A stretch of DNA of 64,000 nucleotides from Kiritimatiellia bacterium (GTDB lineage Bacteria > Verrucomicrobiota > Kiritimatiellia > RFP12 > JBMNHG01): the NCBI GenBank assembly GCA_050950285.1, contig JBMNHG010000002.1:504654-568653 (forward strand), in the 5' to 3' direction. The notes under the pieces were generated by a model. It ran no database searches, had not been told where the DNA came from, and was given only the letters and a program-made list of their open reading frames with translations. This document shows positions 5,041 through 39,510 of the stretch, piece by piece; positions within the stretch are counted from its first letter, which is position 1, and every line of letters starts with the position of its first letter. The translations under genes were made by a program, and so were the position numbers.

Positions 5041-5049
5041 TCCCGCCGC

Positions 5050-5075
5050 AAAAAAAACGGCGCGCCGTTTTTTTT
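5050..5075. terminator. Bidirectional rho-independent terminator (A8-CGGCGCGCCG-T8)
   Basis: Sequence GCAAAAAAAACGGCGCGCCGTTTTTTTTGC: a GC palindrome flanked by an A-run and a T-run, immediately after the tsaB stop. Confidence 0.8.
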
Positions 5076-5093
5076 GCCACCTTCGACCCGACC

Positions 5094-14703: not shown

Positions 14704-14772
14704 GGGGAAAAGAGAGCAAAAAGCATGCCCGCGACTTCGTGCCTGAGGAATCGGCAATCGTCCGTCTTATTA

Positions 14773-14922
14773 CTAACCCGGCCACAAATAGCGTTGCTCA
14801 CGGAGATTCAGGCATTGGGAGCTGGAATTTGGAGTTGGGAAAGGGGCATGGACATTCCTGTCCGTGTCACGGGTTGGAAAACCCGTGCCCCTGTTTTGCA
14901 GTATGAATTGTGGCCGAGTTAG
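14773..14922. mobile_element. MITE copy 1 (150 bp, TIR CTAACCCGGCCACAA / TTGTGGCCGAGTTAG, TA target-site duplication)
   Basis: Terminal inverted repeats with one mismatch, flanked by TA at 14771-14772 and 14923-14924. The same flanks occur uninterrupted at ~19927-19955 (GTCCGTCTTATTAC|TTCTTCCTTGTTTC), i.e. an empty site. A second copy lies inverted at 55516-55665. No ORF is encoded. An internal hairpin is CACGGGTTggaaAACCCGTG. Confidence 0.8.
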
Positions 14923-15135: not shown

Positions 15136-18100
15136 ATGAATTCGCGCCGTTTGTTCTCCAGGTTTGCCTGTTCGGTCATCGCGACAGCCGCATGCGTCGG
15201 CATCGCCAGCGCCGCTTCGCCCGTCGATGTGGACGGCCTCACGCTCTGGCTCGACGCCAATGACTTCGCAAAGTACCCAACCGGCACAAAGGTGCCTTCC
15301 TGGACGGACAAGGCGAGCAGCCTTCCTTTCACGCAGGGCACCGATTCCGTGCGACCGACCGTGAACAAGGAAGGTCCAAACAACAAGACGGTCGTCCACT
15401 TCGAGCGCCCGAACCCCGGCAACCCGAAGCAGACGCAGTATCTCGAGTGCCAGAACAATACCTTGAAGACCCTCTTCCAGGCACCCCACACATCGTTTGC
15501 AGTCGCGCGCGGCACGGCTGCCGGCGGCAACGGCGGCAAGGAGAACGCCACGTACGTCTACGCGTTGCCGGGCTACCACAGCGGCCTCCAGTTCTGGGCG
15601 GACGGCGGAAACAACCTGGTCCCACCCACGCAGGCTGGCGCAATCCGCTGGCTGTCCAACTCGTCGGGCGGCAATGTCGATGGGAACTTCGACCTCCGTG
15701 CGTCCTACACGGCAGGCGAGTACATCATGCTCTCGGCCGTCGTCAATGGCTATAGCTACAATACCCCCGGCGTATCGCTGGACGTCTTCATCAACAACGA
15801 GCCCGTCAATTCCGGCAGCAATGCCGGCAAGTACCTCTACAAGCAGACCAGCGAGTGCGCCCTCGTGCGCATCGGCGCTTCGAACAACAGCGCCGACTGG
15901 TCCGGCGGCCTGAACGGCGACATCGCCGAAATCCTCGTCTTCAACCGCGTGCTTTCCGAGGCGGAACAGAGAACCGTCTGGAAATACCTCGCCAACAAAT
16001 GGGGGCTCGTCGGCTTCGCGATCGGGAACCCCGTGACCCACAGCCCGCTTTACATTTCATCCGGCACGGTCTCCATCATCTCCCATCCCGAAATCGTCGA
16101 GGGCATGGAATACCAGCTCTCCCTCGAGGCAGAGGCAGACAATCTTTCAGAGGCAGACTGGATGGCGTCCTCCACCCCGTTCCCGGAAACCTACTCCTTC
16201 CCCACCCCGGCCGAGGATGGCGACGTGACCATCTATCTTTGGACGCGCACCACGGGCGAAAACGCCGGGACGAACTCCGCCCCCGCGACCATCGCATACA
16301 CCACGGTCGCCCCGACCGCCGTCGCCAAGGACATCTCGATCGCGATCGACAGCGTAACCGGATATCCGCTTTCCGCTTCCGAAATCGACAATGGCTCCTC
16401 CGACGCAACCGGCATCTATTCGCTCTCGGTTGATCCCGGCGTCATCCGCTTCGCGACCAACGTGACGCTCACCGTGATGAACAACGCGGGCCTCGCCTCC
16501 ACCGCGACCGCGCACGTGTCCATCTCCTCTCTCCTCGACATCCACGTGGAGACGGACGGCAATGACGGCCTTGGCGACGGTTCCGCAGGATCTCCCTTCG
16601 CCACCATCTCCCATGCGATCGACGTCGCGAACAACGCGAACGACGGCAACTTCCGCACGGTCTACGTCGGCGAAGGCACCTTCTCCGCCGCTTCCGGCGA
16701 AGTGTTCCCGTACACCGTCTCCAACAACGTGGCGATCGCCGGTTCCGGCATCGGGCGCACGATCGTCGATGGCAACCGCACCGGCAACTTCATGAACCTC
16801 GTCGCCTCCACGACACCATCCCGCATCGCCGGCCTCTCGCTCCGCCGCGCGCAGCGCTACGCGATCAACGCCGAGTCCTGGGGCGGCGTCATCGAGGACT
16901 GCGAGATCAGCGACATCTCGAACACCTACAATTTCATCTTCGTGAACGAAGCTTCCGCGCGCGACTTCACCCTGAGCGGACTCGTCGTGACCAACATCAC
17001 GGGCTCGACTTCATCGAAGCAGCTCATGGATCTGCGCGGCGCGACTGGCGGACTGCTCACGATCACGAACTGCTTCTTCGACAACATCTCCACGCCAAAC
17101 GCGGCGTGGCAGCATGGCGGCAACATCCGCATCATGGGTTCGATAAAAGTTCAAACCGCCGGCTGGAATTCGGAAGTTGTCGACACCGTCTTCGCGAATT
17201 TCACGGCCCCCGGCGGCAACCATGGGGAAGGTTCCTGCATCATGTACGGCAAGACGGCCGACTACGGCTACCATCGGATCGACCGTTGCGTCTTCCACGA
17301 CATCGACTTCACCAACAACGGCGAAGTGTTCATCGGCGGCGACAATGCGAACGCCACCGGCCAGACGCTGGAGATCTGCAACAGCCTCTTCTACAACATC
17401 CACTTCAAGAACAACGGGCCGAGCTACACGTCGAGCGCAGTCGGCGGATTCCGCGTCGCCCCGATCGTCTACAACTGCACCTTCCACAATGTCGACACCG
17501 TGGTGCGCCCGTTCACCGGTTCGGCCCTCAAGGTGTACAACTCCAGCATCAGCGACTGCGCCCACCTCGCGATGGCGAACAACCCCACGACGTACGTCTA
17601 CCTCAACAACGTGAACGTCTGCAACACGGGCGACGCCTCGAACTACAGCGCAGCGAACAGCTCGAACGTGACTTCGTACGACCCCTACTACAAGAACGCG
17701 TCTTCCGCGAACTTCAAGCTCAAGCCCCTGAGCCTGCTCGTCGACGCCGGCAACAACGCGAATGTCCAGGGTGCGAATGACCTCGCGCACGGCGTGCGTA
17801 TCGCCGACGGCAACGCGGATGGAACCGCGACCGTCGATATCGGAGCATACGAGTACGATCCCTCCGCCGCCGGCGCCCGCTTCGTCGCAGGCGCCGCAGT
17901 CTACGGCGTCTTCGAAGGCAAGAGCGTTGCAATCCCCGTCTGGATCGAACCCGCGATGGCACGTGATCCAATCACCGCCAATGTCGCCTGCCCCGCCGGC
18001 ATCACCGGCGCGGCGACGCTCTCCTTCACGACCGGCCTTGAGACGAACCACCTCGTCGTCACCGCCGCCGATCCGCTGGACGTCCCGAACGGCACGCTTC

Positions 18101-19815
18101 TCGAACTCGGCATTTCGGATGCCGACGAAGATCTCGATTCCACGTCGATCGGCCTCATGGTGAACACGCGCGAAGTCTCGATTCCCGGCCTCGCCCCGCG
18201 CGTCTTCCTCCGCGACGGCGAAAGCGCCTCGTTCACCCCGCAACTCCCGAACGAATTCTTCGCCGCGCCCGAAACCATCGCCATCACGGCGGGCTCGCAA
18301 GCGGGCGACATCGGCAACACGATTTCATGGAACGGCACGGGCATTGCGGCCGGAACCAACGCCGCAGACGGCACGCTCTCGCTCGTCAGCGGCGGAACGG
18401 GCCGCACCACGCTCGACCTCTGCCTTCCCAGCGGATGGACCTTCGCCGGATCCGGCGAGGACACCCTCGCCATCGAGGTGGTCGGCTTCGAGCCCCCGCT
18501 CTACATCTCGCCCGACGGCAGCGATGCGACAGGCGAAGGCACCGAGGACTCCCCGCTCCGCACGATGACCTACGCGACCCCGCTCCTCCGCGCGGGTGAA
18601 ACGCTCCGCCTCCTTCCCGGCGTCTATGGCCCGACAGACGCCGAAGTCTTCCCCGTGACCGTCCCGCCGGGCATCGCCCTCGTCGGCGAACGCGGCGCGG
18701 GCGACGCGCCTGAAACCACCGCGATCATCGATCCAGACGCCACCGGAAACGCCTTCGTCCTTGGCACGCTCGGCGCCGACCAGGGCAACATCCCGGGCGG
18801 CGCACTCCGTTCGCTCGTGATCCGCAATGCGGCAGGAACGGGCATCTACGGACGCTTCTGGGGTGGCGACATCACGGACTGCGCGCTGCGTGACTTTGCC
18901 CCGGGCACCTTCCTCGGCTCCTGCTCCGCGCTCTACATCAACCCGTCCCGCGGAAACGTGGTTCTCTCCGGCACGGAAATCGGCTGCATCACCTCGAGCA
19001 TGTCGGTGGTTGCCTACGTCGAATCGGGCAACGGCTCGCTGACCGTCACGAACTGCTGGTTCCACGACCTCAAAGGCACGGGCGAAACGGCTTGGGAACA
19101 CACGGGCGGCATGTTCAACTCGCGCGTGCCCGTCACGGTCATGGACTCCGTCTTCGAGGACATCGTGATGCCCGGAAACGGCGGAAGCGAATCCATGGGC
19201 GTGCTCCATGCGTACAATGTCCACGCCGAATACCACCGCAACATCTTCCGCCGCATCGCGATTCACGAATACCACTTCAACTACGCGCTCCTTGCCGGCA
19301 ACCGCGACACGCCGCTCGTCGCGAACTGCCTGTTCCACGACATTACAAGCGCCGGAACCCGTCAGGTCCTGGGCGGGTACAGCGCCACCTTCAACGTCGT
19401 GAACTGCACCTTCGACAACATCCCCGCGCTCTTCTCGAGCTACGACGTCAAAGGCCGCACCCTGAGAAACTCCTCCGTGAGCCACTGCGACGCAATCAAC
19501 CTCGGTGAACAGGGAACAACGCAAGTCGTGCTGAAGAACGTGAACCTCTACGACGTCGGCGAAGGCACGGGCTTCGCGACCAACTTGAGCGAGAACGTCA
19601 CGTTCGTCGATCCCGGCTACAAGAATCCCGGAGCAGGCAACTACCACCTGCGTTCCTCGAGCGCGCTCGTGAATGCCGGCGACAACACGCTCGTTGTCGG
19701 CACGACGGACCTCGACGGCAACGACCGCATCTTCCGCGCGGACAAGGGCGGCATCGTCGACCTCGGCTGCTACGAGAACTCGACCCTCGGCGGCACGGTC
19801 TTCCTGCTCCGCTAG
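15136..19815 (+). CDS. Giant secreted LamG-domain / 2x DUF1565-type parallel-beta-helix protein (~1559 aa) with C-terminal GTVFLLR tail
   Basis: Signal peptide MNSRRLFSRFACSVIATAACVGIASAASP. LamG/concanavalin-like module (DGLTLWLDANDF ... GDIAEILVFNRVLSEAEQRTVWKYLANKWGL). Two pectin-lyase-fold/DUF1565-like units (SPFATISHAIDVANNANDGNFRTVYVGEGTF and SPLRTMTYATPLLRAGETLRLLPGVYG). Ends ...GCYENSTLGGTVFLLR*. Confidence 0.8.
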   Translation: MNSRRLFSRFACSVIATAACVGIASAASPVDVDGLTLWLDANDFAKYPTGTKVPSWTDKASSLPFTQGTDSVRPTVNKEGPNNKTVVHFERPNPGNPKQTQYLECQNNTLKTLFQAPHTSFAVARGTAAGGNGGKENATYVYALPGYHSGLQFWADGGNNLVPPTQAGAIRWLSNSSGGNVDGNFDLRASYTAGEYIMLSAVVNGYSYNTPGVSLDVFINNEPVNSGSNAGKYLYKQTSECALVRIGASNNSADWSGGLNGDIAEILVFNRVLSEAEQRTVWKYLANKWGLVGFAIGNPVTHSPLYISSGTVSIISHPEIVEGMEYQLSLEAEADNLSEADWMASSTPFPETYSFPTPAEDGDVTIYLWTRTTGENAGTNSAPATIAYTTVAPTAVAKDISIAIDSVTGYPLSASEIDNGSSDATGIYSLSVDPGVIRFATNVTLTVMNNAGLASTATAHVSISSLLDIHVETDGNDGLGDGSAGSPFATISHAIDVANNANDGNFRTVYVGEGTFSAASGEVFPYTVSNNVAIAGSGIGRTIVDGNRTGNFMNLVASTTPSRIAGLSLRRAQRYAINAESWGGVIEDCEISDISNTYNFIFVNEASARDFTLSGLVVTNITGSTSSKQLMDLRGATGGLLTITNCFFDNISTPNAAWQHGGNIRIMGSIKVQTAGWNSEVVDTVFANFTAPGGNHGEGSCIMYGKTADYGYHRIDRCVFHDIDFTNNGEVFIGGDNANATGQTLEICNSLFYNIHFKNNGPSYTSSAVGGFRVAPIVYNCTFHNVDTVVRPFTGSALKVYNSSISDCAHLAMANNPTTYVYLNNVNVCNTGDASNYSAANSSNVTSYDPYYKNASSANFKLKPLSLLVDAGNNANVQGANDLAHGVRIADGNADGTATVDIGAYEYDPSAAGARFVAGAAVYGVFEGKSVAIPVWIEPAMARDPITANVACPAGITGAATLSFTTGLETNHLVVTAADPLDVPNGTLLELGISDADEDLDSTSIGLMVNTREVSIPGLAPRVFLRDGESASFTPQLPNEFFAAPETIAITAGSQAGDIGNTISWNGTGIAAGTNAADGTLSLVSGGTGRTTLDLCLPSGWTFAGSGEDTLAIEVVGFEPPLYISPDGSDATGEGTEDSPLRTMTYATPLLRAGETLRLLPGVYGPTDAEVFPVTVPPGIALVGERGAGDAPETTAIIDPDATGNAFVLGTLGADQGNIPGGALRSLVIRNAAGTGIYGRFWGGDITDCALRDFAPGTFLGSCSALYINPSRGNVVLSGTEIGCITSSMSVVAYVESGNGSLTVTNCWFHDLKGTGETAWEHTGGMFNSRVPVTVMDSVFEDIVMPGNGGSESMGVLHAYNVHAEYHRNIFRRIAIHEYHFNYALLAGNRDTPLVANCLFHDITSAGTRQVLGGYSATFNVVNCTFDNIPALFSSYDVKGRTLRNSSVSHCDAINLGEQGTTQVVLKNVNLYDVGEGTGFATNLSENVTFVDPGYKNPGAGNYHLRSSSALVNAGDNTLVVGTTDLDGNDRIFRADKGGIVDLGCYENSTLGGTVFLLR

Positions 19816-19944
19816 AGAAATTCTCAAAAAAAAAACGGCGCGCCGCGAAGTGGACCCCCATTTCGCGGCGCGCCGCTTTGCGGCGGCAGAGGAAGAAGCC
19901 AACGCGACCCGGCGGGCGGTCTCTTTGGCCGCCGCAGTCCGTCT
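19681..19944 (+). repeat. Direct repeat copy A (~260 bp, >97% identical to 25441..25704)
   Basis: Covers the last ~135 bp of CDS 15136..19815 plus ~130 bp downstream, including the terminator hairpin. Identical apart from single-base differences (e.g. GTTGTCGGC vs GTTGCCGGC). Confidence 0.85.
19826..19880. terminator. Palindromic terminator-like hairpin (A10-CGGCGCGCCGCGAA-12nt loop-TTCGCGGCGCGCCG)
   Basis: Perfect 14-bp stem. The A-run upstream gives a U-run for minus-strand transcripts; CTTT follows on the plus strand. Confidence 0.55.
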
Positions 19945-20022
19945 TATTACTTCTTCCTTGTTTCCATCGCAATGACTCTGTACATTTTTGTTTTCAATTC
20001 ACTCCCAAGGAGCATGTTGTTT

Positions 20023-23000
20023 ATGAAGAAATCGTGGAAGTCGGCGACTGTCGGCGCCATGGTGGCGCTGTTGTCCATTGGCGTGTTCGCGGCGTGTCCT
20101 GAAGGCCTGGATGGCATGGGGCTTACCATCTGGCTCGATGCGACCGACATCGATGGCCTGGGAGATGGCAACCCCGCGGAAAACACCGCGATCAACAGCT
20201 GGACGGACAAGGCAAGCGGACTCCAGTTCACACCGATCATCGGCGGCTATACTGCCGACCAGCATCTGCCGCACCTTTATTCGAACGGGCGCGCCGGCAA
20301 GGACGTCGTCTCGTTCGGTCGCGTGAACGCGATCAACCAGGCACAGTATCTTGGCGCAACCGATTCGCGCATCGCCACACTCTTCGACAACACGAACACG
20401 GCGTTCGTGGTCGCCCAGGCCACGCTGGGTGGCAGTGACAACAACACCCAGACGACAACCTACTTCTTCGCCCGCAAAGGCTGGCACTCCGGCTTTGGCT
20501 TTATGGGTTACCCGCTGGCGACAGCGTTGCAAAACACCCGCTGGTTCGGAGGTACGGCCGCTAACGCCAACAATAAAAACATGATGCCGGCAGCACCGTA
20601 CACGAACGGCACATGGATCGCCGCCTCGCGCATCATCCGCGGCGGCACGACGATCGTCGGGGCCTCGTCCGAAATCTTCATCAACAACCGTTTGAGGGCG
20701 GCATCGACCAATGCGACCGAATCTCTCTGGGGCCATGGAGGCAGCGCCAACACGATGTATGTCGGATGTTCGGGCACGCAAAATGGCACCTACTGCGGCG
20801 GCATGTCAGGCCACATCGCGGAAATGCTCATCTTCAACCGCGAGCTGACTGCGGAAGAGCATGCGAAGGTCTGGAAGTACCTGAACGCACGCTGGCAGCT
20901 CGCCGGTGACGACGAGTACACATACGATGACGGCGTCATCCGCTCGAATGACGGCACCGTCAAGCGCACCGTTCTCGGCGGCGGCAAGTTCTGCTACGAG
21001 TTCACCGTGCCACGCGGCGAAATCAAGGTCTCGCCCGTCAGCGCATCGGTTCTCGAGCGTGCGCTGCTCGTGGGTGCGGGTGGCGCGGGCGGCCTCACGC
21101 TCGGTGGCGGCGGCGCAGGTGGCGGCGTCGTGGAGTATGCCGACCTCGACGTGACTCTCCCCCAGGAATTCACCCTCTCCGTCGGCGAAGGCGGTGTTGG
21201 CTACCATCTTTGCAATCTCGCCAGCGCCTTTTGGGCGACCAAGGGCGGAAACGGCGGCAAGACCACGCTTCATGTCGATGGGAACGAATACGTCGCGTAC
21301 GGCGGTGGCGGAGGCGCTTCATGGAGCGCGACCGCTGCGGACTCGACGTCGGGTTCGACCCCGCTCGCCAATGCCGGCGGCGGCTCCGGCGCCGGCGGCA
21401 AGGGCGGCATCGGCATCGACCACAATGGCGCCGATGTCGTCGGTTTCGCCATCAGCCATGGAAACGGCGCCGGCGGCGGCGGCGGCGCCGGCGGCGACGG
21501 CCAGGCAGCTTGCCAGAGCGGGACTCTCTACTATGCCGGTACGGGCGGATGCGGCGTCACCAACAACACCACCGGCATCGAAGTCGAATACGGCGCCGGC
21601 GGCGGTGGCGGCGGCGGCAACGGCATCCATCGCGGCCTCGCGGGCGGCGTGTCGGCCGGCGACGGCGGCGAGGCCAGCCAATTTGGCGGCCCGCAAATTG
21701 GATTCGATGGTCTCGATGGCCGCGGTGGCGGCGGTGGCGGCGGCGGCTATGCCTATGCCTGCTCCGGAGGCCGCGGCGGTTCTGGCGCCGTGATCCTCGT
21801 CATCCAGAAGAAATCGTTCGCGATCGCGGATTCCTTCTCGCTTTTCCCCGAGGCTACGGCACGCGGTGAAATCGTCGCTACATACGTCGGGGAAGCCGAG
21901 GAAGGTTCAACCTATCTTGTCTCGCTCGAGGGCGATTCCACGCAGCTGCCCTCCGTGGGCTGGACGGCCTGCGGCGGCGACCTGCCGACGTTCCAGTTCC
22001 CAACCAACACACCATACGGCACCGTCACGGTCTACTACCACGTGAAGGATGTCGGCGGCGATATCGCGACGTATTCGGCGCAGATCGCATACGTCGATCC
22101 TGCCGATTGCGTTCCCATGGTCACCGTGAAGGACGCCATGGTCACGTATGACGAATCCATCGGCGGCGTGACGCCGATCACGGTCGACATGGTCAAGGTT
22201 TCCGTGGAAGACGACTACGGGATCTATTCCGAGACACTCGACGTGACGGGCATCTGCACGGCGTCCACGAACACGACCCTCACGGTCACGAACCGCCTTG
22301 GCATCGCGGCCGGCGCAACCGCGACGGTCACAGCCTCCACGCTTTTGTGCTTCGTCTCGCCCGATGGCGATGACGGGACCGGAACGGGCTGGAGCGATGC
22401 CCCCCTCAAGACGATCACGAACGCCCTCGCTCTCGCGGAAGCGGGATACACCTTCGACGGCCTGCAACGCACGGTCTACCTCATGGAGGGTACCTACAGT
22501 GCCTCCGACGGGCAATCCTTCCCCATCACCCTGGTGGAAGGCGTGAACTTCAAGGGCGCCGGAATGGGCAAGGCGATTGTCGACGCCGAAGGTGCTGCCA
22601 ACCATCTGGTCATTCCTTCATCGACCGTGCCGTTTGCAATCTCCGGTTTCTCGCTCCGTAACGCGCAAGCGCGTTTCCTCCAGGCGTCTGCGGCGAACTT
22701 CGCACTCAAAGACGTCGAGATGAGCGGCTGCGCCACCGGCAATGGCTGCATCTACATCTGTACCTACGCCAATGCTCGCACGGTTTCGTTCGAGAACCTG
22801 GTGATGACGAATATCGCCGTGACGGTGAACCAGGGCCAGCTGGTCCACGCCGGTGGCTCGGGTGCGCTGTCGTTCGACAAGTGCCGCTTCGCGGACATCG
22901 CCATTGCCTGGGCCGGCAATGGCACCGGTTTCAAGGTCTGCTATGCGCAGAACACGGGCGCCGACCATTTCTACGCGTCGGGCTGGCCGGCAACGGTCAC

Positions 23001-25575: not shown

Positions 25576-25704
25576 AGAAATTCTCAAAAAAAACGGCGCG
25601 CCGCGAAGTGGACCCCCATTTCGCGGCGCGCCGCTTTGCGGCGGCAGAGGAAGAAGCCAACGCGACCCGGCGGGCGGTCTCTTTGGCCGCCGCGGTCCGT
25701 CGCT
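25441..25704 (+). repeat. Direct repeat copy B (pairs with 19681..19944); partial third copy at 28725..28775
   Basis: Near-identical 3' CDS end plus downstream hairpin (hairpin at 25586-25640). A truncated version of the same hairpin follows the next gene (AAAAACGGCGCGCCGCGAAGTGGACCCCCATTTCGCGGCGCC). Confidence 0.85.
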
Positions 25705-25770
25705 CCCCCGCGCGATTGTTGACGAAGAAACGGCGTTTTGATACGGTGCCCGAATAACAAGGAGAGTTCC

Positions 25771-28713: not shown

Positions 28714-28969
28714 GCGGCAGCCTGGAAAAACGGCGCGCCGCGAAGTGGACCCCCATTTCGCGGCGCCGGCAATTCTGGGACTGCAACGAGCGTGGGCGTC
28801 CCCGCCATCCCGTGGACAAGCAGGCGCTCATCCCTTGTCTCCCGGTCCCCTCCGGCGCCCCCTTCCCGGCCAGCCAAACATCCTGGAACTCCTGGTTTCT
28901 CTGGAACGAAGCGGGTGAAATATGCTACGGTGCGGAAAACATCATCCTGAAAGGCCGGCCAACGTGAAC

Positions 28970-31441: not shown

Positions 31442-31491
31442 CCGCGGCGCGAAGCGGACAAGGCCCGGCGAACGGACCACAGGCACGTGCC

Positions 31492-34400
31492 ATGACGATA
31501 CGAACCACGATCCCCATCTTCTTCCTGCTCTGCGCATGCCTTCCCATCGCGCAGGCGGTTGATTTCGAATACACGCTCGAAGAGGACGCATCGGTCACGA
31601 TCGTCATCGAGGACGAAGAGGGATGCCGCGTGCGCAATCTCGTTTCGGAAGCGCAGCGCACGAAGGGGCTTGTCACGGAAACCTGGGACGGGCGCAACGA
31701 CATCGGGCAGTCCGTCGAACCCGGCGTCTATCGCTGGCGCGGAATCCGGCATGGCGGGATCAAGAGCCACTATATCGGCAACTTCTGTTCGCCGCACTCC
31801 GAAGGCGCGACTCCCTGGAAGCATCTCGACGCGGAGGGCATCCGCACGCAGGAGGGCGGCAATGGCGGCGGATGGCTTTCCGATCACGCCGCACCGTCGA
31901 TTGCGCTTGCGGTCGGCGATGAAATCCTGCTCGGTTGCAACCTCGCCGAGGAAGGCGATTCGATCATCCGCGTGACGCCCGAAGGCAGGAAGATCTGGGG
32001 TGCGCGCTGGCAGGCTCTCGTGTGCCCGGCCGCGATCGCGTTTGACCCGCGGGACGGCGCGCTCTATGTCGCCGGCGAAGGCGGCTGGATCGGCAAGGAC
32101 AGGCTGGTCGTCGTGCGCCGCCTCCTGAAGAATGGCAAGGTGACGAACTACCCCGTTCCAAAGGATGTCCGCGAACGCCTTGAAAAGCAGAATCCCGCCT
32201 TCGCGGACCAGCAACTCATCCGCCTGGCCCGCACGGAGTATTCGGGCCTTGTCGGCATGAGCGTCATCGGCGACTTCCTCGCGCTTGCGCTTACCGACAA
32301 AAACCGCATCGCGTTGTTCGATACCAGGACCGCGCTGCATGTCCGCGACATCCCGTTGCCGGAACCCGTGGCGCTTTGCGGGGATCACGCGATTTCGGGA
32401 AAGAACATCGTCCGGATCGATCCCGACAACGATGCCGTGATCGCCCTCTGCGAATGCGAGGAATTGCTTGAACCTCGCGGTCTCGCGATCGATGGCGAAG
32501 GCCACTTCCATGTCTCCGACGCCGCGCCCGGCGAAATGTGCGTGAAGGTCTTCAACGGGGAGGGACGCCTTGTGCGCACCATCGGCAAGAAGGGCGGGCG
32601 CAGAGAAGGGCGCTACGATCCGAAGGCGATGGATCGCCCTGCCGGCCTTGCCATCGATGCCAAGGGACAACTCTGGGTCACGGAGGACAGCCCGTACCCG
32701 CGGCGCGTATCGGTGTGGACGCCGGAAGGCAGGCTGGTGCGCGAGTTCGTCGGCGGCGCGCGCTATGGCGGCGGCGGTTCGATTTCCGGCGGCAAGGGCT
32801 ATTACGGCGGCATGCGCTTCAAACTGCACAAGGCTCCGCGGCAGGGCGAGCTCGAGGCGATCCTGTTCCGTCCCGAAGAGCATCCGGGGTTCCCGTTCGA
32901 CGTCGGCAAAAACTTTCTCGGCCCCGATCTCCATCAAACCGTCCTGTTCAACGGACGCCGCTATCTGATGGCGGACGATGGATGGGTGCGCTCCCTGACA
33001 ATCGTCGCGGAGGAAGTCGGCGATCGCGCCGTCCTGCGCGCCGCGTGGGGCGAAGCGAGCGAGCTCCGGAATGAGCAGCGGGCGGCAAACGGCGTCTTCC
33101 TCTGGAGCGACGCAAATGGCGATGGCCAGTATCAACCCGAGGAGCTTTCGGTTCATGGCGAGTATCACTTCAAGGCGCAGTGGGCGCTGAGGTCCGCGCC
33201 CGGCCTGGACGCGTTCTTCTACCATCGCGACGGGGACGGACGCCTTCGCATCGTGCGCATCCGGGCGCATGCGGACAGGAAATCGAAGGTGCCCCGGTGG
33301 GATTTCTCCACGCCGGTCGTCTATCCGATCGGCCGCACGCCGAACGACGAGATTATCGGCGCATCGCCGCTGGGGCACACCGACGACATCATCGTCAACT
33401 TGCGGGGATCCACGGGCGGAAGGTCGATGACCAACAACGTCCTCCTTTGCGCTTCGCCGGGCGGGCGGATCCGCTGGACCTATCCGAATCCATATCCGAC
33501 GAACGGAACCACGTCGCCCGTGCCGAAGCGCGGCGAGATCCGTCACACCCTCAATGCCGAAGGCTTCGCGGAGGCCGAAGGGTTCGGCATGGTCTGGCTG
33601 TTGAACGGCAATTTCGGGACGCGCTATCTTTTCTCGGAAGACGGACTTTTCATCACCGAGCTTTTCCGCGACCAGCGCGTGGCGGGAAGCTTCTACAACA
33701 TCCACGACGCGACGCCCGGACGCGTCCTGAGCGGGTATTCCGCTCTCGGCGAATGCTTCTACGGCTGGCTGGGCAATGGGGACGATGGCCGCGTCTTGCA
33801 GATCATCGGCAAGCAGACCTGCAACGTTTGCGAACTTTCGGGATTCGACACGTTGCGGCGTCTTCCGGGCGGGGAGGTCCATCTGGAAGAGCGCGCCGTG
33901 CCGCTCGGGGAACTGCCGCAACGCGAACGAAGCGCCATTCGGGCGATCGAGATGGAGGGCAACTGGATGCCGGGCGGAGAGCAGTGGTATCAAAACGCGC
34001 CCAACGTGATCGAGGCCGAAACACGCATTGCGGCATTCGCAGTGGGGTCGGGATACGGGGCGACGCTTGCGGTGCAGATTCGCGTGGAAGACGACTCCCC
34101 CTTCCTCAACAAGGGCGATGATTTCACCACGATGTTCCACACGGGCGATTGCGTGGACATCCGTTTTGCCGGCGATTCCAGCGCCGATCCGAAGCGAACC
34201 CGCGCGGTTGCCGGCGACGTGCGGTATCTCGTTGTTCCGGATGCGGAGGATCCGGGGAAGGCGCGCGTGATCCGCTACACGTACGTCGATCCGGAGGCGA
34301 AGGGCGAGCCCGTCGTGTTTGCGTCTCCTGTCGGAAGTTGCGAGATCGCGCGGGTCGAGGAGCTCAAGGGCTGCGGATCGCGGGTCGTGCGCGACAGGAA

Positions 34401-34629
34401 GGGCTATACGCTCTCCGTTACGATACCCGGCCACCATTTGCCGATTGAAAAGGGCAAGCGGCTTTCGGGCGCGACCTTGATGGATGTCGGCGTCATCTTC
34501 GGCAACGAGACGGGAAGCGAAGTAAAGCGCCGCGAATACTTCTTCGACGACGAAAGCCGCATCGTCCACGATATTCCGAGCGAAGCCGGCGTCAATCCTT
34601 CGCTGTGGGGAACGGTTCAATTCCGGTAG
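31492..34629 (+). CDS. Secreted NHL-repeat/beta-propeller-like protein (~1045 aa), C-terminal GTVQFR tail
   Basis: Signal peptide MTIRTTIPIFFLLCACLPIAQA. NHL-like repeats (GLAIDGEGHFHVSDAAPGEMCVKVFNGEGRLVRTIG ... GLAIDAKGQLWVTEDSPYPRRVSVWTPEGRLV). Ends WGTVQFR*. Confidence 0.7.
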   Translation: MTIRTTIPIFFLLCACLPIAQAVDFEYTLEEDASVTIVIEDEEGCRVRNLVSEAQRTKGLVTETWDGRNDIGQSVEPGVYRWRGIRHGGIKSHYIGNFCSPHSEGATPWKHLDAEGIRTQEGGNGGGWLSDHAAPSIALAVGDEILLGCNLAEEGDSIIRVTPEGRKIWGARWQALVCPAAIAFDPRDGALYVAGEGGWIGKDRLVVVRRLLKNGKVTNYPVPKDVRERLEKQNPAFADQQLIRLARTEYSGLVGMSVIGDFLALALTDKNRIALFDTRTALHVRDIPLPEPVALCGDHAISGKNIVRIDPDNDAVIALCECEELLEPRGLAIDGEGHFHVSDAAPGEMCVKVFNGEGRLVRTIGKKGGRREGRYDPKAMDRPAGLAIDAKGQLWVTEDSPYPRRVSVWTPEGRLVREFVGGARYGGGGSISGGKGYYGGMRFKLHKAPRQGELEAILFRPEEHPGFPFDVGKNFLGPDLHQTVLFNGRRYLMADDGWVRSLTIVAEEVGDRAVLRAAWGEASELRNEQRAANGVFLWSDANGDGQYQPEELSVHGEYHFKAQWALRSAPGLDAFFYHRDGDGRLRIVRIRAHADRKSKVPRWDFSTPVVYPIGRTPNDEIIGASPLGHTDDIIVNLRGSTGGRSMTNNVLLCASPGGRIRWTYPNPYPTNGTTSPVPKRGEIRHTLNAEGFAEAEGFGMVWLLNGNFGTRYLFSEDGLFITELFRDQRVAGSFYNIHDATPGRVLSGYSALGECFYGWLGNGDDGRVLQIIGKQTCNVCELSGFDTLRRLPGGEVHLEERAVPLGELPQRERSAIRAIEMEGNWMPGGEQWYQNAPNVIEAETRIAAFAVGSGYGATLAVQIRVEDDSPFLNKGDDFTTMFHTGDCVDIRFAGDSSADPKRTRAVAGDVRYLVVPDAEDPGKARVIRYTYVDPEAKGEPVVFASPVGSCEIARVEELKGCGSRVVRDRKGYTLSVTIPGHHLPIEKGKRLSGATLMDVGVIFGNETGSEVKRREYFFDDESRIVHDIPSEAGVNPSLWGTVQFR

Positions 34630-34754
34630 TACGCCGGAAGAAAGGGCCAAAAACAAAGGCGGGCCGTTTCCCCGGGAACCGGCGGAAGAAGGACACGGCG
34701 GGCGCACCGGATTTCCAGTGCGCCCGCCGTATCGCCAGGTTTGGGGATGGAATC

Positions 34755-37700
34755 CTAGCGGAGGAGGATCAGCGTGCCGGCTTCAGGCGGGATGCCAACG
34801 TAGGTGTCGCCCCGGAAGACGTACACCTTCACCTTCGAGATGTCCACGTCCTCGGCGGCGGTCACCGTGATCTTGTTGGCGGCGAGCAGCTCCTCCACGT
34901 ACGTTTCGCGGCTCCCTTCGAAGCAGATGCCCGAATAGGGTTTGGCCTGCATGGGGGCGGCGTAGTGGAGATGGAGGACGCCGTTGTTGCCGAAGGCGGG
35001 CGTGACATCCCCGGCGAAGCGGAGGCCGGCGGACGTGCCGTCGAGCACTGTCGTAACGGTTGCCGCATTGTCGCCGTTGCCGATTGCGGCGGCGGAATCC
35101 ACCTGCATTTCGGTGCCATGAAGGGTGAGGGTGGCCGCGCCGTTCTGGCCGATCTGGAAGATGTCGCAACGGACGCGGCCGGCGGGGAGCGTCGCTTCGC
35201 CGTAGGATCCGGAGAAGCCGCCCGTGCCGATGGTGAAGGTCTGGGCGTCGAGGTCGATTCCGTCCATCGCGGCGAGCCGCAGGTAGCCGGGCATGCCGTG
35301 TCCGACGACGAATTCGTCGAGCCAGCCGGCGAAGGTGCCGCCGGAGGAGGCTTCGAGAAGACCGCTGTCCCCACCCCAGTTGCTCCAGCCGACGTAGACG
35401 TTTCCGCGCGATTCGGCGGATGTGCCGATGTCGAACGAGACGTTTGCGGGAAGCTTCCAATCGGCGTCGGGGTCGCCGAAGCGGCAGTGGCCGATGCGGT
35501 GGCCGAAGCTCACGAGGAAGGTCCCGGGCACGACGATGTTCGTGACGCCCGTATCCGGCCCGAAGGCGAACTGGCCAACCGAGCGGGCCTGCGTCTCGTA
35601 GTGGCCGTAGCCGGCGAGCAGGTTCTCCGCGCGGAGGATGCCACCCTTCACGGTGGCGCCGCGGATGTCGAGCGTGGCGCAACCACCGGCGCCGCCCTGG
35701 CAGGTGGGGAGGCAGAGGGTGCCGAAATCGGCGTCGACGACCGTGTTGGTGAGGGTCAAACGGCTCCATCGCGAAGCGTCGCCAAGGGCTGCGGTCGGAC
35801 TGTCCACGAGAAGCCCGCCCTTGGCGAACTTCAGGGTGCCGCCGGCGACGATGGCGGAGGAGCTGGCATCCTTGCTGCCGACGGTGAAGTAGCCCTCGGA
35901 GGGAAGCGCCTCGTGGTACGTGTTGGCGAGCGCGGCCCAGTTGTTGGCGGCGAGCGTGGCCGAATAGGCATGATTCGTGACGGTGAGCGTCTTCCCGTCA
36001 AGGTCGAAGAGATACGTCCCGGAGGTGTTCTGCACGAAGATGCCACCCACCTGGCGATCGCGGTCGACGCGGTTCGTGGTCTGCGATGCGTCGGGGAAGA
36101 GAAGCGTGGCGGGCGTCTCGGCGGCCGGTCCGCCGGTGGCTGGCGACCAGTTGCCCGACCAGCGCCAATCCGGACGATAGTGATGGGCGAGCGAAGCGTC
36201 GCCGGTCCAGGAAAGCGCCGCGGTCGAACGCGGGCGGAGCGGCCTTACCGTGAGTTCCGACACCGCCTCGGTGGAACCCATGTCCTGCGAGGTGTAGGTG
36301 AGGGTGTTCGACACCAGGAGCGGAAGGTCGTCTGCGGCGAGGGTGATCGGGGGGAGCGTCACGATGGAGGGATTCCCCGGCGTCTGGTCCATGGGGCCGG
36401 TGAAGGTAATCGTCATGCCCTCCTGCTCGGGCGAGAGGTCGACATCCCGCACATCGATCGTGAACACGGTGGAGGTATCGGGATCGACCTCCACGTCGAG
36501 GGGGCGGGTCACGACGGTCGGCGCCCAAAGGCCGCTGGCGCGATGGGCGATGTAGGTGAAGCCGGCGTCCGCGTCGTAGTAGATGTTTGCGGAGCCGGGG
36601 ATTTGCGTGTCATCGATCACGATCTTGCCGGCCTGCCGGAGCTGGGCGAGGGAGACGCTGTGGTCGCCGGCGATGCGGAATCCCCAATAGACGCCGTTCG
36701 TGCCTTGGCTGGCGTCGGGTTGCGCGAAGACCACGTGCAACTTGCCCTGAAGGGTGAAGGGCGCGCCCTCGGCGATGTCGAGGCCGCAGGACGTGCCTTG
36801 GACCAGGTTCGAGACCACGCCGCAGCTGCCGACCGAAAGGGTGTTGTTGATGACGGCGATCGTTCCGTCCAGAAGCAGTTCGCCGGACCCGTAGTTGGAG
36901 CCGAGCGTGATGGGGCCGTTGAAGGTCGCGACACCGGGGGGCAGGGCGAGGCGGCCCGTGCCGACGCACGTGGAGCTGCCGCTGGAGCCGATGGTGACCG
37001 CGCCGGACACGTCCATCCAAACGCTGTCCAGGGTGTCCAGGTAGAGGGCGCCCCAGGCCGTGCCATCTGCGCCGCCAGGCTTGTTGCCGAGATGGATGCT
37101 GCTGACCCAGGCGGTGCAGTCGCCGCCGTCGCCGGCCGCAAAGTGCCCGTAGGTGGGCCAATAGCCGGCATGGCCGATGGAAATCGCGGCGCGCCGCGAA
37201 GCATCGACGCCAAACTTCACGTCGGTGCCTGCCGGGAGCGGCGCGGTGCCGTTGCCGTCGCGCTGGCCGATCCAGGATGTGTTCTGCTCGTTGTAGGCGA
37301 GCTGCAGGTTGTCGAGCGCCTCGAAGGAGGTCAATGCCGGACCGAAGAGGAGTTCGATGTTCGAGCGGAAGTGGCTGCCGTGGCCTTCGATGCCGAGCCG
37401 GACCTGATGGGCGCGGAAGACGCCGATCTCGTCGCCGCAACGCATCTGCGAAACGTTCCGGAAGTCAATCTGGCCCCAGCCGCCGCGGCCTTGCCCGAGA
37501 AGCAATTCGCCGATATGGCCGTCGAACACCGTGTTGGTGCCGAAGACGAGTCGAGCGTAGTAGTAATCGTCCCAGGAACGGCCGAAGAGAATCTCGGCGA
37601 CCGCATCGGCAGTGCCCACGCGGAAGGTGCCATTCGAGATGACGAGGGTGTTGAGACCGTGGTTGGCGTCACGCCCGGAACCGTCGGGAAGGTTCCAATA

Positions 37701-38030
37701 CTGTTGCATGTGCAACTGGGAGGCGACCGTGAGCGCATGGCCCCCCAAGTCGAGCGTATGCACATAGTCGTCGGTGCGCCCGACAATCGGATTGCGCGAG
37801 TAAAGGCCGGTGATGGTGCGATCCGTGTCGAGGACGATCAATCCTCCCTGGTCGTTGTCCTCGAAGAGGGCGATGTCGCCCGTGTAGCCGGGTGGAATGC
37901 CGCTGTCCCAGTTCGCACCGGTTGCCCAGGATGTCCCTGCACCTCCGATCCATTCGATTTCCCCCGCAAACGCGGCAGAAAGAGCCAGCGTACCCGCCAG
38001 CAACGACAGAGCCCATGGTTTCGATTTCAT
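34755..38030 (-). CDS. Secreted autotransporter-associated beta-strand-repeat protein (~1091 aa), C-terminal GTLILLR tail
   Basis: Signal peptide MKSKPWALSLLAGTLALSAAFA. PATR-type motifs (WIGGAGTSWATGANWDSGIPPG). Ends EAGTLILLR*. The antisense plus-strand ORF 34605..38054 is compositional noise. Confidence 0.75.
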   Translation of the reverse strand: MKSKPWALSLLAGTLALSAAFAGEIEWIGGAGTSWATGANWDSGIPPGYTGDIALFEDNDQGGLIVLDTDRTITGLYSRNPIVGRTDDYVHTLDLGGHALTVASQLHMQQYWNLPDGSGRDANHGLNTLVISNGTFRVGTADAVAEILFGRSWDDYYYARLVFGTNTVFDGHIGELLLGQGRGGWGQIDFRNVSQMRCGDEIGVFRAHQVRLGIEGHGSHFRSNIELLFGPALTSFEALDNLQLAYNEQNTSWIGQRDGNGTAPLPAGTDVKFGVDASRRAAISIGHAGYWPTYGHFAAGDGGDCTAWVSSIHLGNKPGGADGTAWGALYLDTLDSVWMDVSGAVTIGSSGSSTCVGTGRLALPPGVATFNGPITLGSNYGSGELLLDGTIAVINNTLSVGSCGVVSNLVQGTSCGLDIAEGAPFTLQGKLHVVFAQPDASQGTNGVYWGFRIAGDHSVSLAQLRQAGKIVIDDTQIPGSANIYYDADAGFTYIAHRASGLWAPTVVTRPLDVEVDPDTSTVFTIDVRDVDLSPEQEGMTITFTGPMDQTPGNPSIVTLPPITLAADDLPLLVSNTLTYTSQDMGSTEAVSELTVRPLRPRSTAALSWTGDASLAHHYRPDWRWSGNWSPATGGPAAETPATLLFPDASQTTNRVDRDRQVGGIFVQNTSGTYLFDLDGKTLTVTNHAYSATLAANNWAALANTYHEALPSEGYFTVGSKDASSSAIVAGGTLKFAKGGLLVDSPTAALGDASRWSRLTLTNTVVDADFGTLCLPTCQGGAGGCATLDIRGATVKGGILRAENLLAGYGHYETQARSVGQFAFGPDTGVTNIVVPGTFLVSFGHRIGHCRFGDPDADWKLPANVSFDIGTSAESRGNVYVGWSNWGGDSGLLEASSGGTFAGWLDEFVVGHGMPGYLRLAAMDGIDLDAQTFTIGTGGFSGSYGEATLPAGRVRCDIFQIGQNGAATLTLHGTEMQVDSAAAIGNGDNAATVTTVLDGTSAGLRFAGDVTPAFGNNGVLHLHYAAPMQAKPYSGICFEGSRETYVEELLAANKITVTAAEDVDISKVKVYVFRGDTYVGIPPEAGTLILLR

Positions 38031-39094: not shown

Positions 39095-39190
39095 CCCCTT
39101 GCGCGGCGCGCCGGATTTTCCGGCGCCCGCGCTCCCGCCCGTCAACCGCCCCGTCGGTTCGCGATTCCACAGTCCATCACGGAGGATGTC

Positions 39191-39400
39191 ATGTCGGTAG
39201 GTTTCACGGAAGTTCTTTTGATCGTGATCGTCGTGCTGCTCCTCTTCGGCGCGAAACGCATCCCGGAAATCGCCAAGGCGATCGGCCGTGCGAGCGTCGA
39301 GTACAAGAAGGCGAAAAACGCGTTGCAGCAGGAGGGCAAGGAACTCCTCAAGGACGCCGAGAAGGCTGCCGAAGCCGAATCGGACCGCCGCGAGACCTGA
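39191..39400 (+). CDS. tatA: Twin-arginine translocase subunit TatA
   Basis: 69 aa. Single N-terminal TM + amphipathic helix. Motif LLIVIVVLLLFGAKRIPEIAKAIGRASVEYKKA (FG-KR-LPE ... KKA) is classic TatA/E. Confidence 0.9.
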   Translation: MSVGFTEVLLIVIVVLLLFGAKRIPEIAKAIGRASVEYKKAKNALQQEGKELLKDAEKAAEAESDRRET

Positions 39401-39510
39401 TGCTCCCCGGCGTTCGATGCATGGCGGGCCTGCCGTTGCGGGGCCTTCGCCCCACGCATGCCGTGCGGCATCGTTTCGCACCCCCGCCCCTGGAGGAACC
39501 GCATCGTCCC

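Follow-up and report, generated by a model that had tools for sequence, protein, structure and literature searches.

Unrelated exported proteins of Kiritimatiellia share a G-T-Φ4-R/K C-terminal tail, a candidate sorting tag

The stretch of DNA analysed here, 64,000 nt long and referred to as the window, encodes eight proteins (p1 to p8) whose translations end in [G/A]-T-hydrophobic(3-4)-R (Table 1). An initial annotation had described these tails on eight giant secreted proteins. The translations agreed exactly with the claimed tails, and an end of the form T-hydrophobic(3-5)-R was found in exactly eight of the 452 stop-to-stop ORFs of at least 60 aa in six frames, namely p1 to p8. A broader pattern, [GA][TFLAVSI]Φ3-5[RKQ]$, applied to six-frame ORFs of at least 40 aa, again retrieved only these proteins. 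Three to five hydrophobic residues separate G-T from the last residue, which is a single R or K, occasionally Q; there is no basic cluster. The term giant does not apply to p7 with its 544 aa, and p8, previously given as one ORF, is split by a frameshift.

Sec-type signal peptides were predicted on all eight proteins. The domains ahead of the tails are unlike each other, as had been claimed, with unrelated Pfam/NCBIfam assignments (LamG, DUF1565 beta-helix, Gly_rich_2, GDSL-like, FlgD_ig/NHL, F5/8 type C, PATR). The window comes from the MAG of an uncultured Kiritimatiellia bacterium, for which NCBI has a protein 100% identical to p1. With a score of 39.9 bits against a cut-off of 25, p1 belongs to the choice-of-anchor Q model NF041518. 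A 957-aa signal-peptide protein at 11931-14801 (minus strand) does not carry the tail. Two GH71 proteins with signal peptides also end without it; that GH71 and housekeeping proteins of the window lack the motif had been stated correctly.

Table 1. Tail-bearing genes of the window and the positions of their tails
Feature	Position	Strand	Content	C-terminus and stop
p1, 1559 aa	15136..19815	+	signal peptide, LamG, DUF1565 beta-helix, choice-of-anchor-Q-type DxGCYE cap	GGTVFLLR, stop 19815
p1 C-terminus	codons 19792-19812	+	5-aa linker after cap, GTVFLLR	TAG
p2, 1850 aa	20023..25575	+	p1 paralogue; signal peptide (possible lipobox), Gly_rich_2, DUF1565	GGTVFLLR, stop 25575
p2 tail	25552-25572	+	GTVFLLR (translation)	
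p3, 980 aa	25771..28713	+	signal peptide, GDSL-like lipase, Gly_rich_2	PATLIMLR, stop 28713
p3 tail	28690-28710	+	ATLIMLR (translation)	
p4, 823 aa	28970..31441	+	signal peptide, two LamG-plus-Ig-like units	AGTLFFLR, stop 31441
p4 tail	31418-31438	+	GTLFFLR (translation)	
p5, 1045 aa	31492..34629	+	signal peptide, FlgD_ig, NHL/SGL beta-propeller	WGTVQFR, stop 34629
p5 tail	34609-34626	+	(W)GTVQFR, one residue shorter (translation)	
p6, 1091 aa	34755..38030	-	signal peptide, no Pfam family	AGTLILLR, stop 34755-34757
p6 tail	codons 34758-34778	-	GTLILLR (translation)	TAG 34755-34757
p7, 544 aa	53381..55015	-	signal peptide, no Pfam family	PGTILFVR, stop 53381-53383
p7 tail	codons 53384-53404	-	GTILFVR (translation)	TAA
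p8, frameshift-split near 58,400	56596..59072	+	two reading frames	LGTLLLLR, stop 59072
p8 first part	frame of 56596-58416	+	signal peptide, F5/8 type C domain	
p8 second part	frame ending 59072; tail 59049-59069	+	PATR repeat	GTLLLLR

The strict motif occurs eight times in the approximately 21,000 residues of predicted window proteins, seven times at a C-terminus and once internally. For at least eight of 27 C-termini carrying it in the predicted proteome of the window, the binomial probability is ~6e-29. At the DNA level, the pattern G-T-h-h-h-h-R-TAG is present four times in the window and was absent from 100 shuffles. Because p1 and p2 are paralogous and do not differ in their last 45 residues, the number of independent tails is seven.

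Outside the window a ninth example was found elsewhere on the same MAG contig (P0010, ending QGTMLLLR). A metagenome scan with one codon version of the tail matched at least 120 loci. Among the 120 matches listed, 46 terminate ORFs of 300 to ~2900 aa, whereas 2.4% of the TAG triplets of these loci overall end ORFs of at least 300 aa (P ~4e-42). Most of the complete tail-bearing ORFs among the matches listed have a signal peptide, and their domains are unrelated. All named lineages with the tail are Kiritimatiellia; taxonomic names were available for few lineages only. The tail is kept in orthologues at 28-74% identity with swaps between R, K and Q and between T and F, which gives the consensus G-[T>F,L]-Φ4-[R>K>Q]-COOH; the orthologue of p5, for example, ends WGTVLFR (locus L010). 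In relatives the Thr can be replaced by F, L, A or S and the last residue is sometimes Q. Thus no single residue of the tail is chemically essential. None of the housekeeping or cytoplasmic proteins of the window and of related Kiritimatiellia loci carries the tail. It is also missing from the secreted glycoside hydrolases in tail-bearing loci, which fits a surface-display subset.

Chance, composition or an event at the DNA level (a terminator or repeat, a recombined 3' cassette, read-through of TAG) could in principle produce similar ends. Such an origin might be suspected from the 3' ends of p1 and p2, which are identical, from the TAG stop in seven of the eight genes (p7 has TAA), and from a 35-nt palindrome common to p1, p2 and p3 about 20 nt past the stop. 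However, the palindrome lies outside the coding sequence, p3 has it and still uses different tail codons, and relatives stop with TGA, TAA or TAG. The DNA around the stops is alike only among p1, p2 and p3, and no similarity was found for the other five. Identical tail residues are encoded by differing codons (ACG/ACC; CTC/CTG/TTG/CTT; CGC/CGG), and these synonymous differences indicate selection on the tail at the protein level. Together with the chance probabilities of ~1e-28 (window) and ~1e-42 (metagenomes), this refutes an artefact as far as sequence analysis reaches, and we consider such an origin practically out of the question. Judged from the sequences, the data show the tail to be real, position-specific, under protein-level selection, confined in the window to proteins with signal peptides, and widespread.

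The tail is also independent of the domain preceding it. BLAST of the last 130 aa across the window tail proteins detected the p1/p2 paralogy only, and Pfam found no family common to the last 200 aa of 42 tail proteins. In AlphaFold2 models of p1 and p4 the tail has a pLDDT below 50 and no secondary structure. The Ig-like domain ahead of it in p4 reaches a pLDDT of 71-90, and the cap ahead of it in p1 was moderately modelled (mean pLDDT 69). Both models were built on shallow or moderate alignments (mean pLDDT 60-69). Behind the choice-of-anchor-Q-type DxGAYE cap, relatives have no further element, a dockerin-like module, a T9SS C-terminal domain (CTD) or the tail, which is then joined by a linker of 3-7 aa. 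A profile of DxGAYE cap plus tail matched 152,762 proteins at E<=0.001 in a search of 1.84 billion proteins. The tail was present in none of the best 150 of these 152,762 matches, the search being swamped by multi-repeat giants; it shows the diversity of anchors, not the frequency of the tail. The homologue search with the cap profile yielded only proteins of up to 160 aa, mostly apparent partial genes from short contigs. With the p4 family, a contig-level genome scan returned two loci only, and the Opitutaceae homologue has no tail.

The initial annotation had interpreted the tail as a sorting or processing tag, which would fail if the motif were not enriched, were equally common on cytoplasmic proteins or were part of a shared C-terminal domain. 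None of this was the case: the enrichment held in the window and in the metagenomes, the tail was seen on no cytoplasmic protein of the window or the related loci, and neither BLAST nor Pfam revealed a common domain. The interpretation is thus supported and not refuted, with the function itself being inferred from sequence patterns.

Tripartite sorting signals (PEP-CTERM/exosortase, LPXTG/sortase, GlyGly-CTERM/rhombosortase, MYXO-CTERM) resemble the tail in their order of motif, hydrophobic run and basic end. They likewise occur many times per genome on unrelated surface proteins, and the gene for their processing enzyme usually lies apart from those of the substrates. In contrast to them, the tail has a hydrophobic run of only 3-5 residues, which forms no TM helix, a single basic residue, and no PEP, LPXTG, GG or Cys motif. 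It therefore falls short of the tripartite signals in all three respects: it has no signature motif recognised by NCBIfam, no hydrophobic segment of the TM-helix length that defines these signals (10.1101/2023.06.07.544157), and no basic cluster. No sorting-signal model of NCBIfam or Pfam matched the full tail proteins, and ten isolated tails gave no NCBIfam sorting-signal match even at E<=10, in line with the earlier view that the tail is too short for a TM anchor and is not a catalogued signal. Nor does the tail fit the LPXTG/sortase pattern of motif, spacer, TM helix and basic tail in a monoderm host: there is no LPXTG motif and no NCBIfam match, and Kiritimatiellia are diderm PVC bacteria. 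The beta-signal read by BAM (ζ-x-G-x-x-Φ-x-Φ) likewise lies at the extreme C-terminus, as a strand in which hydrophobic residues come after a Gly and which is read through its free end. Yet it alternates and ends in Phe or Trp, whereas the tail is uniformly hydrophobic, ends in Arg or Lys and follows no beta-barrel; Pfam found no barrel or autotransporter domain in the window tail proteins, p8 having only a passenger-type PATR. The peroxisomal PTS1 (-SKL) and the ER signal -KDEL are also very short, located at the extreme C-terminus and found on unrelated proteins. They are eukaryotic signals of another sequence, recognised by soluble TPR or membrane receptors, and are a conceptual analogy only. 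A resemblance to the prepilin site G|FTLIE was dropped, because that site lies at the wrong protein end and requires a TM helix. A search of the accessible literature, which included Kiritimatiellia sorting, T9SS and proteome as well as choice-of-anchor, found no description of the heptad.

The most similar ends were those of T9SS type B CTDs (CHU_C, PF13585/TIGR04131), and the claim that the tail has no CTD-like features was not quite accurate. Type B carriers are Sec-exported, often giant and adhesin-like, and in the three found here the extreme C-terminus G-T-V-Φ-L-L-R-COOH equals the heptad GT[VLI]ΦΦΦR of the window; a terminal strand G-x-Φ-x-Φ-Φ-R is thus present in the window tails. Three CHU_C proteins among the metagenome matches listed (L040, L059 and L128, from low-GC loci) end in RGTVLLLR, SGTVLLLR and RGTVMLLR. 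In these the CHU_C profile reaches position 83-84 of 86 and stops five residues short of the end. The type B signal folds into a domain of ~86-100 aa that contains five conserved motifs, in contrast to the window, where only the last seven residues are shared and follow unrelated domains; CHU_C was absent from all window proteins, whether the full proteins or their last 200 aa were searched with Pfam. One of these, motif E, is located on a beta strand of the domain, and secretion in F. johnsoniae depends on it (PMC12618676). We take motif E, by analogy, to be the last strand of the domain, i. e. the counterpart of the heptad, which would make this strand the closest functional analogue of the tail.

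Type B CTDs are recognised by PorP/SprF-type shuttles. Their hosts encode SprA/Sov, PorV and PorP/SprF, often with the cognate PorP/SprF gene next to the substrate gene; the PorP/SprF family was found neither in the window nor among 39 genes flanking high-GC tail genes. The hosts differ as well, the tail occurring in PVC bacteria (Kiritimatiellia) and T9SS in the FCB group. T9SS is regarded as confined to Bacteroidota/FCB (PMC7463736, PMC12398890). Given this restriction, the parallel may be convergence only. The type A CTD (Por_Secre_tail, PF18962/TIGR04183) is also a C-terminal signal on signal-peptide proteins and appears interchangeable with the tail behind the same choice-of-anchor domains: P0011 (Dokdonia) ends ...STIKRVIKQ, and L076 ends KGTLFILR. 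It is, however, an Ig-like domain of ~75 aa, which PorU cleaves and which becomes joined to A-LPS, and the window proteins contain no domain of this kind.

All-versus-all clustering of 641 predicted proteins from tail loci revealed no recurrent neighbour family; clusters that seemed to be candidates contained short-chain dehydrogenases and the like on inspection. Pfam on the 39 flanking genes detected no recurrent family and nothing that could serve as receptor or processing enzyme. The membrane protein at 2823-4280, named earlier as an unlinked candidate for the enzyme, was rejected: it has a sub-threshold TMEM260-like match, no NCBIfam match, and no linkage to the tail in the window or elsewhere.

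In our interpretation, to which we assign a probability of roughly 0.55, the tail is a self-contained C-terminal tag, most likely a sorting or anchoring signal acting after Sec export. Function, recognition and cleavage are inferred. The tag consists of a short linker rich in Pro, Gly and Ser followed by G-[T>F,L]-Φ-Φ-Φ-Φ-[R>K>Q]-COOH, and in Kiritimatiellia it has been added to numerous adhesin-like proteins that are Sec-exported but not related to each other (beta-helix, LamG and PATR types). The free terminal strand, fully hydrophobic up to the basic last residue and its carboxylate, could be bound by one common receptor in the periplasm or outer membrane; beta-strand augmentation in a hydrophobic groove is the probable mode. 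This receptor could then guide the protein through the outer membrane or retain it at the cell surface. Many substrates would thereby converge on one machine, as in PEP-CTERM/exosortase or T9SS. Against this reading, four to five hydrophobic residues are an unusually small signal, in which moreover no single residue is essential, there are no functional data, and no receptor or processing enzyme was found near the tail genes.

The tail could also be a miniature signal of the sortase/exosortase type; Verrucomicrobiota proteins of the PATR, beta-helix and choice-of-anchor types usually carry PEP-CTERM. P-x-G-T would then be the motif, and the hydrophobic run and Arg would be what is left of a TM helix and a basic cluster. 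An endopeptidase or transpeptidase embedded in the membrane would cleave at or near G-T and attach the protein to a surface polymer or lipid. The order of the elements mirrors the tripartite design of Haft (10.1101/2023.06.07.544157), and Pro precedes the Gly by 1-3 residues in about half of the examples. But the run of 4-5 residues is far from the TM length demanded, the shortest catalogued signal, CGP-CTERM, having 20 aa (10.1101/2023.06.07.544157). The single basic residue and the failure of NCBIfam sorting models also speak against this reading, as does the absence of an exosortase, rhombosortase or CPBP-like gene adjoining any of the ~40 tail genes, and we regard it as unlikely. Equally unlikely in our view is a structural role, in which the tail would be the final strand or hairpin capping the last domain, or a strand donated to another subunit (donor-strand exchange, head-to-tail polymerisation) in surface fibres or a coat. 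This would agree with a hairpin-like pattern, in which positions -11 to -14 are enriched in hydrophobic residues and followed by a P/G/S turn at -8 to -10, with the counterpart in the T9SS CTD being a genuine strand of a folded domain, and with N-terminal LamG strands of p1, p2 and p4 that are loosely tail-like (GLTLWLDA, PVVWFVGD). Yet AlphaFold2 leaves the tail unpacked on two different preceding domains, the run does not alternate like an edge strand, the same heptad stands behind unrelated folds (beta-helix cap, Ig-like, Gly-rich, PATR), and an N-terminal LamG is missing from five of the eight window proteins.

Two further ideas were dropped: pairing of the tail with an N-terminal LamG strand, which exists in only three of the eight window proteins, and an oligomeric beta-barrel of C-terminal hairpins, which would need longer strands. 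Short hydrophobic C-termini with a free carboxylate are the targets of PDZ and tail-specific proteases. The tail might be a periplasmic quality-control or turnover signal, read by such a protease or chaperone (Prc/Ctp, DegS/DegP-like) and governing the stability of very large exported proteins or envelope-stress signalling. The size of the signal would be right, and unlinked housekeeping machinery would match the absence of a linked gene. Known Prc and DegS ligands, however, have a hydrophobic or aromatic last residue and not Arg or Lys; dozens of large, costly proteins would hardly be expected to keep a degradation tag at 28-74% identity, and secreted enzymes in the same loci do without it. 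We give this reading very little weight.

A bolder form of the sorting-tag reading, which we put forward only tentatively and would not call probable, is that Kiritimatiellia, and possibly other uncultured high-GC lineages, have an unknown sorting system whose whole signal is the seven-residue G-T-Φ4-R/K-COOH. Dozens of giant surface proteins would then be exported or anchored by a dedicated machine of the outer membrane or periplasm that has yet to be identified. If true, this would be a new class of bacterial sorting signal, neither transmembrane tripartite nor a folded CTD. The heptad might even be the minimal core that T9SS-type CTD recognition started from or evolved towards, and its identity with the last type B strand raises a testable question, namely how much CTD recognition needs. 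LPXTG, PEP-CTERM and the T9SS CTD each founded a field of surface-protein research and provided annotation tools for thousands of proteins; a tag of seven residues is too short for HMM libraries and would therefore have escaped detection there. As an address label, the tail would offer a tiny portable tag for surface display, would delimit the surface proteome across a whole class of PVC bacteria that degrade polysaccharides in guts, digesters and sediments, and would predict an unknown export or anchoring machine in a lineage regarded as lacking T9SS.

Translation of the eight genes returned exactly the C-terminal tails ([G/A]-T-hydrophobic(3-4)-Arg-COOH) that the initial annotation had given (see table). 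All eight are present, but two of them, the paralogues p1 and p2, share one and the same end. Among the 452 stop-to-stop ORFs of at least 60 aa in the six frames of the window, T-hydrophobic(3-5)-R is the end of these eight and no others, and a much looser pattern applied to ORFs of at least 40 aa again retrieved them alone. The supposed enrichment at C-termini was borne out: across the predicted proteins of the window, about 21,000 residues in all, the strict motif occurred seven times C-terminally and once internally (that at least 8 of 27 C-termini carry it by chance has P about 6e-29). The corresponding DNA pattern was found four times in the window versus never in 100 shuffles. The tail codons vary synonymously among the genes (ACG/ACC, CTC/CTG/TTG/CTT, CGC/CGG), and no DNA similarity was seen around the eight stops except for p1, p2 and p3. 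Thus the tail is conserved at the protein level.

All eight proteins begin with a Sec-type signal peptide. As had been expected, the tail is absent from cytoplasmic proteins and from the co-located secreted glycoside hydrolases, including both exported GH71 enzymes of the window. The statement that every large multidomain protein with a signal peptide in the two surface-protein clusters carries it holds for the eight, but a 957-aa exported protein has no tail. Nor is p8 the single gene it was taken for: a frameshift near 58,400 interrupts it. The part with the signal peptide and the F5/8 type C domain stops at 58416, and the part with PATR and the tail continues in a different frame; either p8 is a pseudogene or the assembly is in error here.

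TAG is the stop codon in 7/8 tail genes versus 4/18 other genes of the window (Fisher p = 0.003). In other MAGs the relatives stop with TGA, TAA or TAG, so the bias is local (and unexplained). p1, p2 and p3 are each followed, about 20 nt past the stop, by a perfect copy of one GC-rich palindrome of 35 nt, CGGCGCGCCGCGAAGTGGACCCCCATTTCGCGGCG. Its fold is an 18-bp stem (-47.6 kcal/mol, z = -5.4) with an A-run before and just a weak U-run after it; by its appearance the three genes share a terminator-like or REP-like element.

Coordinates and C-terminal residues of the features (positions are those of the window unless a locus is named)
Feature	Position	Strand	C-terminal residues
p1	15136..19815	+	GGTVFLLR
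p2	20023..25575	+	GGTVFLLR
p3	25771..28713	+	PATLIMLR
p4	28970..31441	+	AGTLFFLR
p5	31492..34629	+	WGTVQFR
p6	34755..38030	-	AGTLILLR
p7	53381..55015	-	PGTILFVR
p8	56596..59072	+	LGTLLLLR
Frameshift in p8	58380-58420		
Palindrome copies	19836-19870, 25594-25628, 28731-28765		
Membrane protein	2823-4280		
VWA/DUF4159 ORF	4404-10544	+	
ORF with adhesin-like ends	10602-11927	-	
957-aa exported protein	11931-14801	-	
tatA and aldo-keto reductase	39095-41507	+	
Tandem GH71 proteins	46670-49264, 49257-51389	-	
DUF58/VWA protein	59155-60888		
p1 orthologue, 74% identity	P0008		GGTIFLLK
p1 relative, 28%	P0009		FGTVLMLK
p4 orthologue, 72%	P0002		PGTILYLQ
p4 relative, 30%	P0003		RGFLLLLR
p4 relative, 30%	P0004		AGFGISIR
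p5 orthologue	L010		WGTVLFR
p5-family relative	L139 1-425		WGDITIAK
LamG neighbour	L002		LGTAVLLK
Another Kiritimatiellia MAG	L136		PGAWLLLR, QGFLLLVR
Beta-helix protein	L138		SGSLYMLR
Stand-alone cap and tail ORFs	L140 10001-10114; L139 10001-10255; L134 10001-10360; L138 10001-10483		
Two recurrent families outside the finding, listed together	L016, L037, L043, L057, L058, L061, L107 and L022, L042, L044, L050, L098, L103		

Several other genes of the window deserve mention. One of the tandem GH71 proteins is fused to an FGE-sulfatase (SUMF1-like) domain, and a DUF5696 protein is encoded downstream. tatA is followed by an aldo-keto reductase with a twin-arginine signal peptide and a C-terminal 4Fe-4S dicluster domain. 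A 2046-aa ORF of about 72% GC has VWA and DUF4159 domains and a choice-of-anchor X match; its N-terminal third is Arg/Pro-rich and of low complexity, so its true start is uncertain. Together with the DUF58/VWA gene, this ORF flanks the surface-protein clusters, and both resemble Bat-like aerotolerance-type genes. The ORF with adhesin-like ends has an Arg-rich middle resembling a wrong frame, and may represent a tailless surface-protein gene that has decayed or been frameshifted.

The domains ahead of the tail are as diverse as initially described: LamG with a DUF1565 beta-helix, Gly_rich_2, GDSL-like, LamG with an Ig-like unit, FlgD_ig with NHL, and F5/8 type C with PATR; two proteins have no Pfam family. 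A common C-terminal domain was not found by BLAST of the last 130 residues, which shows just the p1/p2 paralogy. In p1, p2 and their relatives a well-defined terminal cap is followed by a linker of 3-7 residues and then the tail. The aligned cap has the consensus DPxF...SPxIdaG...DldGxxR...vDxGAYE and is of the choice-of-anchor-Q type (39.9 bits for p1, cut-off 25). Database proteins with this DxGAYE cap have four endings, namely the cap itself, a dockerin-like DLLxLLAxWGPC module, a T9SS CTD or the present tail, which is the classic choice-of-anchor situation. Small stand-alone ORFs (37-160 aa) with the cap and the tail alone and no signal peptide lie amid unrelated genes on long contigs, one of them adjoining rve/HTH transposase-like genes. 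Each is probably what survives of the 3' end of a larger gene.

p1 and p4 match proteins of an NCBI Kiritimatiellia MAG at 100% identity, and P0010, a protein from the same MAG contig but outside the window, ends QGTMLLLR. Relatives retain the tail, with variation. Position frequencies were taken from 19 examples, none of which was found via the tail itself: G at -7 (16/19), T (13/19) or F (3/19) at -6, L, I, V, F or M at -5 to -2, and R (14), K (4) or Q (1) at -1. The p5-family relative on L139 (1260 aa, FlgD_ig) has a degenerate tail, which keeps W-G and the terminal basic residue and nothing else.

Metagenomes were scanned with one codon version of the tail (GGN ACS NTS NTS NTS CTS CGS TAG), which matched at least 120 loci. 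Of the 120 matches listed, 46 end ORFs of at least 300 codons, the longest about 2,900 aa (the protein collection gives 2,919 aa), whereas 2.4% of all TAG triplets there do so (P about 4e-42). Most complete tail proteins among the matches listed start with a signal peptide. Seventeen of 20 predicted proteins looked up are exact members of a public protein collection, several in clusters with hundreds of members; just one cluster has organism names, again Kiritimatiellia. Pfam found PATR (6), Beta_helix (3), Gly_rich_2, PA14, PKD, LRR_5, Peptidase_C10 and others in the last 200 aa of 42 tail proteins, and no family common to all. Two further recurrent families were caught by the scan but do not belong to the finding, a 120-220-aa protein ending AEPFLPEIFRDxSNIGTLLFLR and a conserved 20-codon ORF, ...TGWLRRSHVGTFIMLR.

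The initial annotation saw no CTD-like features in the tail. This holds insofar as CHU_C (PF13585), the T9SS type B CTD, matches no window protein by Pfam, on full proteins or their last 200 aa, but it misses that the tail equals the terminal strand of this very domain. Four of the 46 long-ORF matches listed (three distinct proteins) are of low-GC Bacteroidota type and have CHU_C. Their last ~90 residues match it at E 1e-15 to 1e-23, the profile reaches nearly the last residue, and they end RGTVLLLR, SGTVLLLR and RGTVMLLR. A fifth CTD-type match has a FlgD_ig/Por_Secre_tail-like CTD ending KGTLFILR. In F. johnsoniae each of the five conserved type B CTD motifs is needed for secretion, including motif E on a beta strand (PMC12618676). 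So the Kiritimatiellia heptad equals the strand that closes an established secretion signal, with the remainder of that CTD missing. The T9SS is regarded as confined to Bacteroidota/FCB (PMC7463736, PMC12398890).

The tail is modular, strictly C-terminal and under selection at the protein level, and limited to Sec-exported, mostly very large adhesin-like proteins (8/8 in the window and most complete metagenomic ones); beside this, an artefact is barely conceivable. That it is unlike catalogued signals was confirmed, as NCBIfam release 20 gave no sorting-signal match on the full proteins, nor with ten isolated tails at E<=10; seven residues are below what HMM libraries can score. Tripartite signals are defined by a signature motif, a hydrophobic segment of TM-helix length and an Arg cluster, and the shortest catalogued one has 20 aa (Haft, 10.1101/2023.06.07.544157). 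The tail fails on TM length and basic cluster, and with no model match it therefore falls outside the sortase/exosortase-type families, the T9SS CTD families and the BAM beta-signal. It resembles a miniature of the sortase/exosortase-type signals and a fragment of the T9SS CTD, and no curated model or literature searched describes it. We consider it unlikely that it is a vestigial tripartite signal cleaved near G-T. A structural or donor strand seems similarly improbable. P, S, G and A abound at -8 to -10 and hydrophobic residues are enriched at -11 to -14, a hairpin-like pattern; AlphaFold2, run on the last 150 aa of two unlike contexts, p1 (60 aligned sequences, mean pLDDT 69) and p4 (4 sequences), modelled the preceding domain in both and left the tail without secondary structure (pLDDT <50). 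The p4 Ig-like domain reached pLDDT 71-90, with GTYRLRTH as its last strand. The models suggest a tail hanging free of the preceding domain, but not conclusively, because the alignments are shallow to moderate.

Clustering of 641 predicted proteins from the loci examined gave no recurrent non-tail neighbour. By Pfam, the 39 flanking genes encode glycoside hydrolases, regulators and housekeeping enzymes, and no PorP/SprF, sortase, exosortase or protease family recurs among them. Less likely still than a vestigial tripartite signal or a structural strand is a role in quality control, with the tail read by a PDZ or tail-specific protease. The membrane protein initially put forward as a candidate processing enzyme has just a sub-threshold TMEM260-like match and no NCBIfam match. 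An unlinked machine serving many substrates is normal for PEP-CTERM and T9SS type A, so the absence of linked genes neither supports nor refutes a sorting role. A new sorting system, with machinery of its own and the tail as its mark, is possible but remains doubtful.

Our preferred interpretation, with a probability of roughly 0.55, is that the tail is a post-Sec address for surface export or retention, inferred without functional data. Once a protein has passed Sec, a shared receptor at or close to the outer membrane would bind its free hydrophobic strand, together with the basic residue and carboxylate at the very end, and would export the protein or retain it on the surface, in much the way that T9SS CTDs are read through their last strand. 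With its function inferred in this way, the tail would be a bacterial C-terminal sorting signal of undescribed form.
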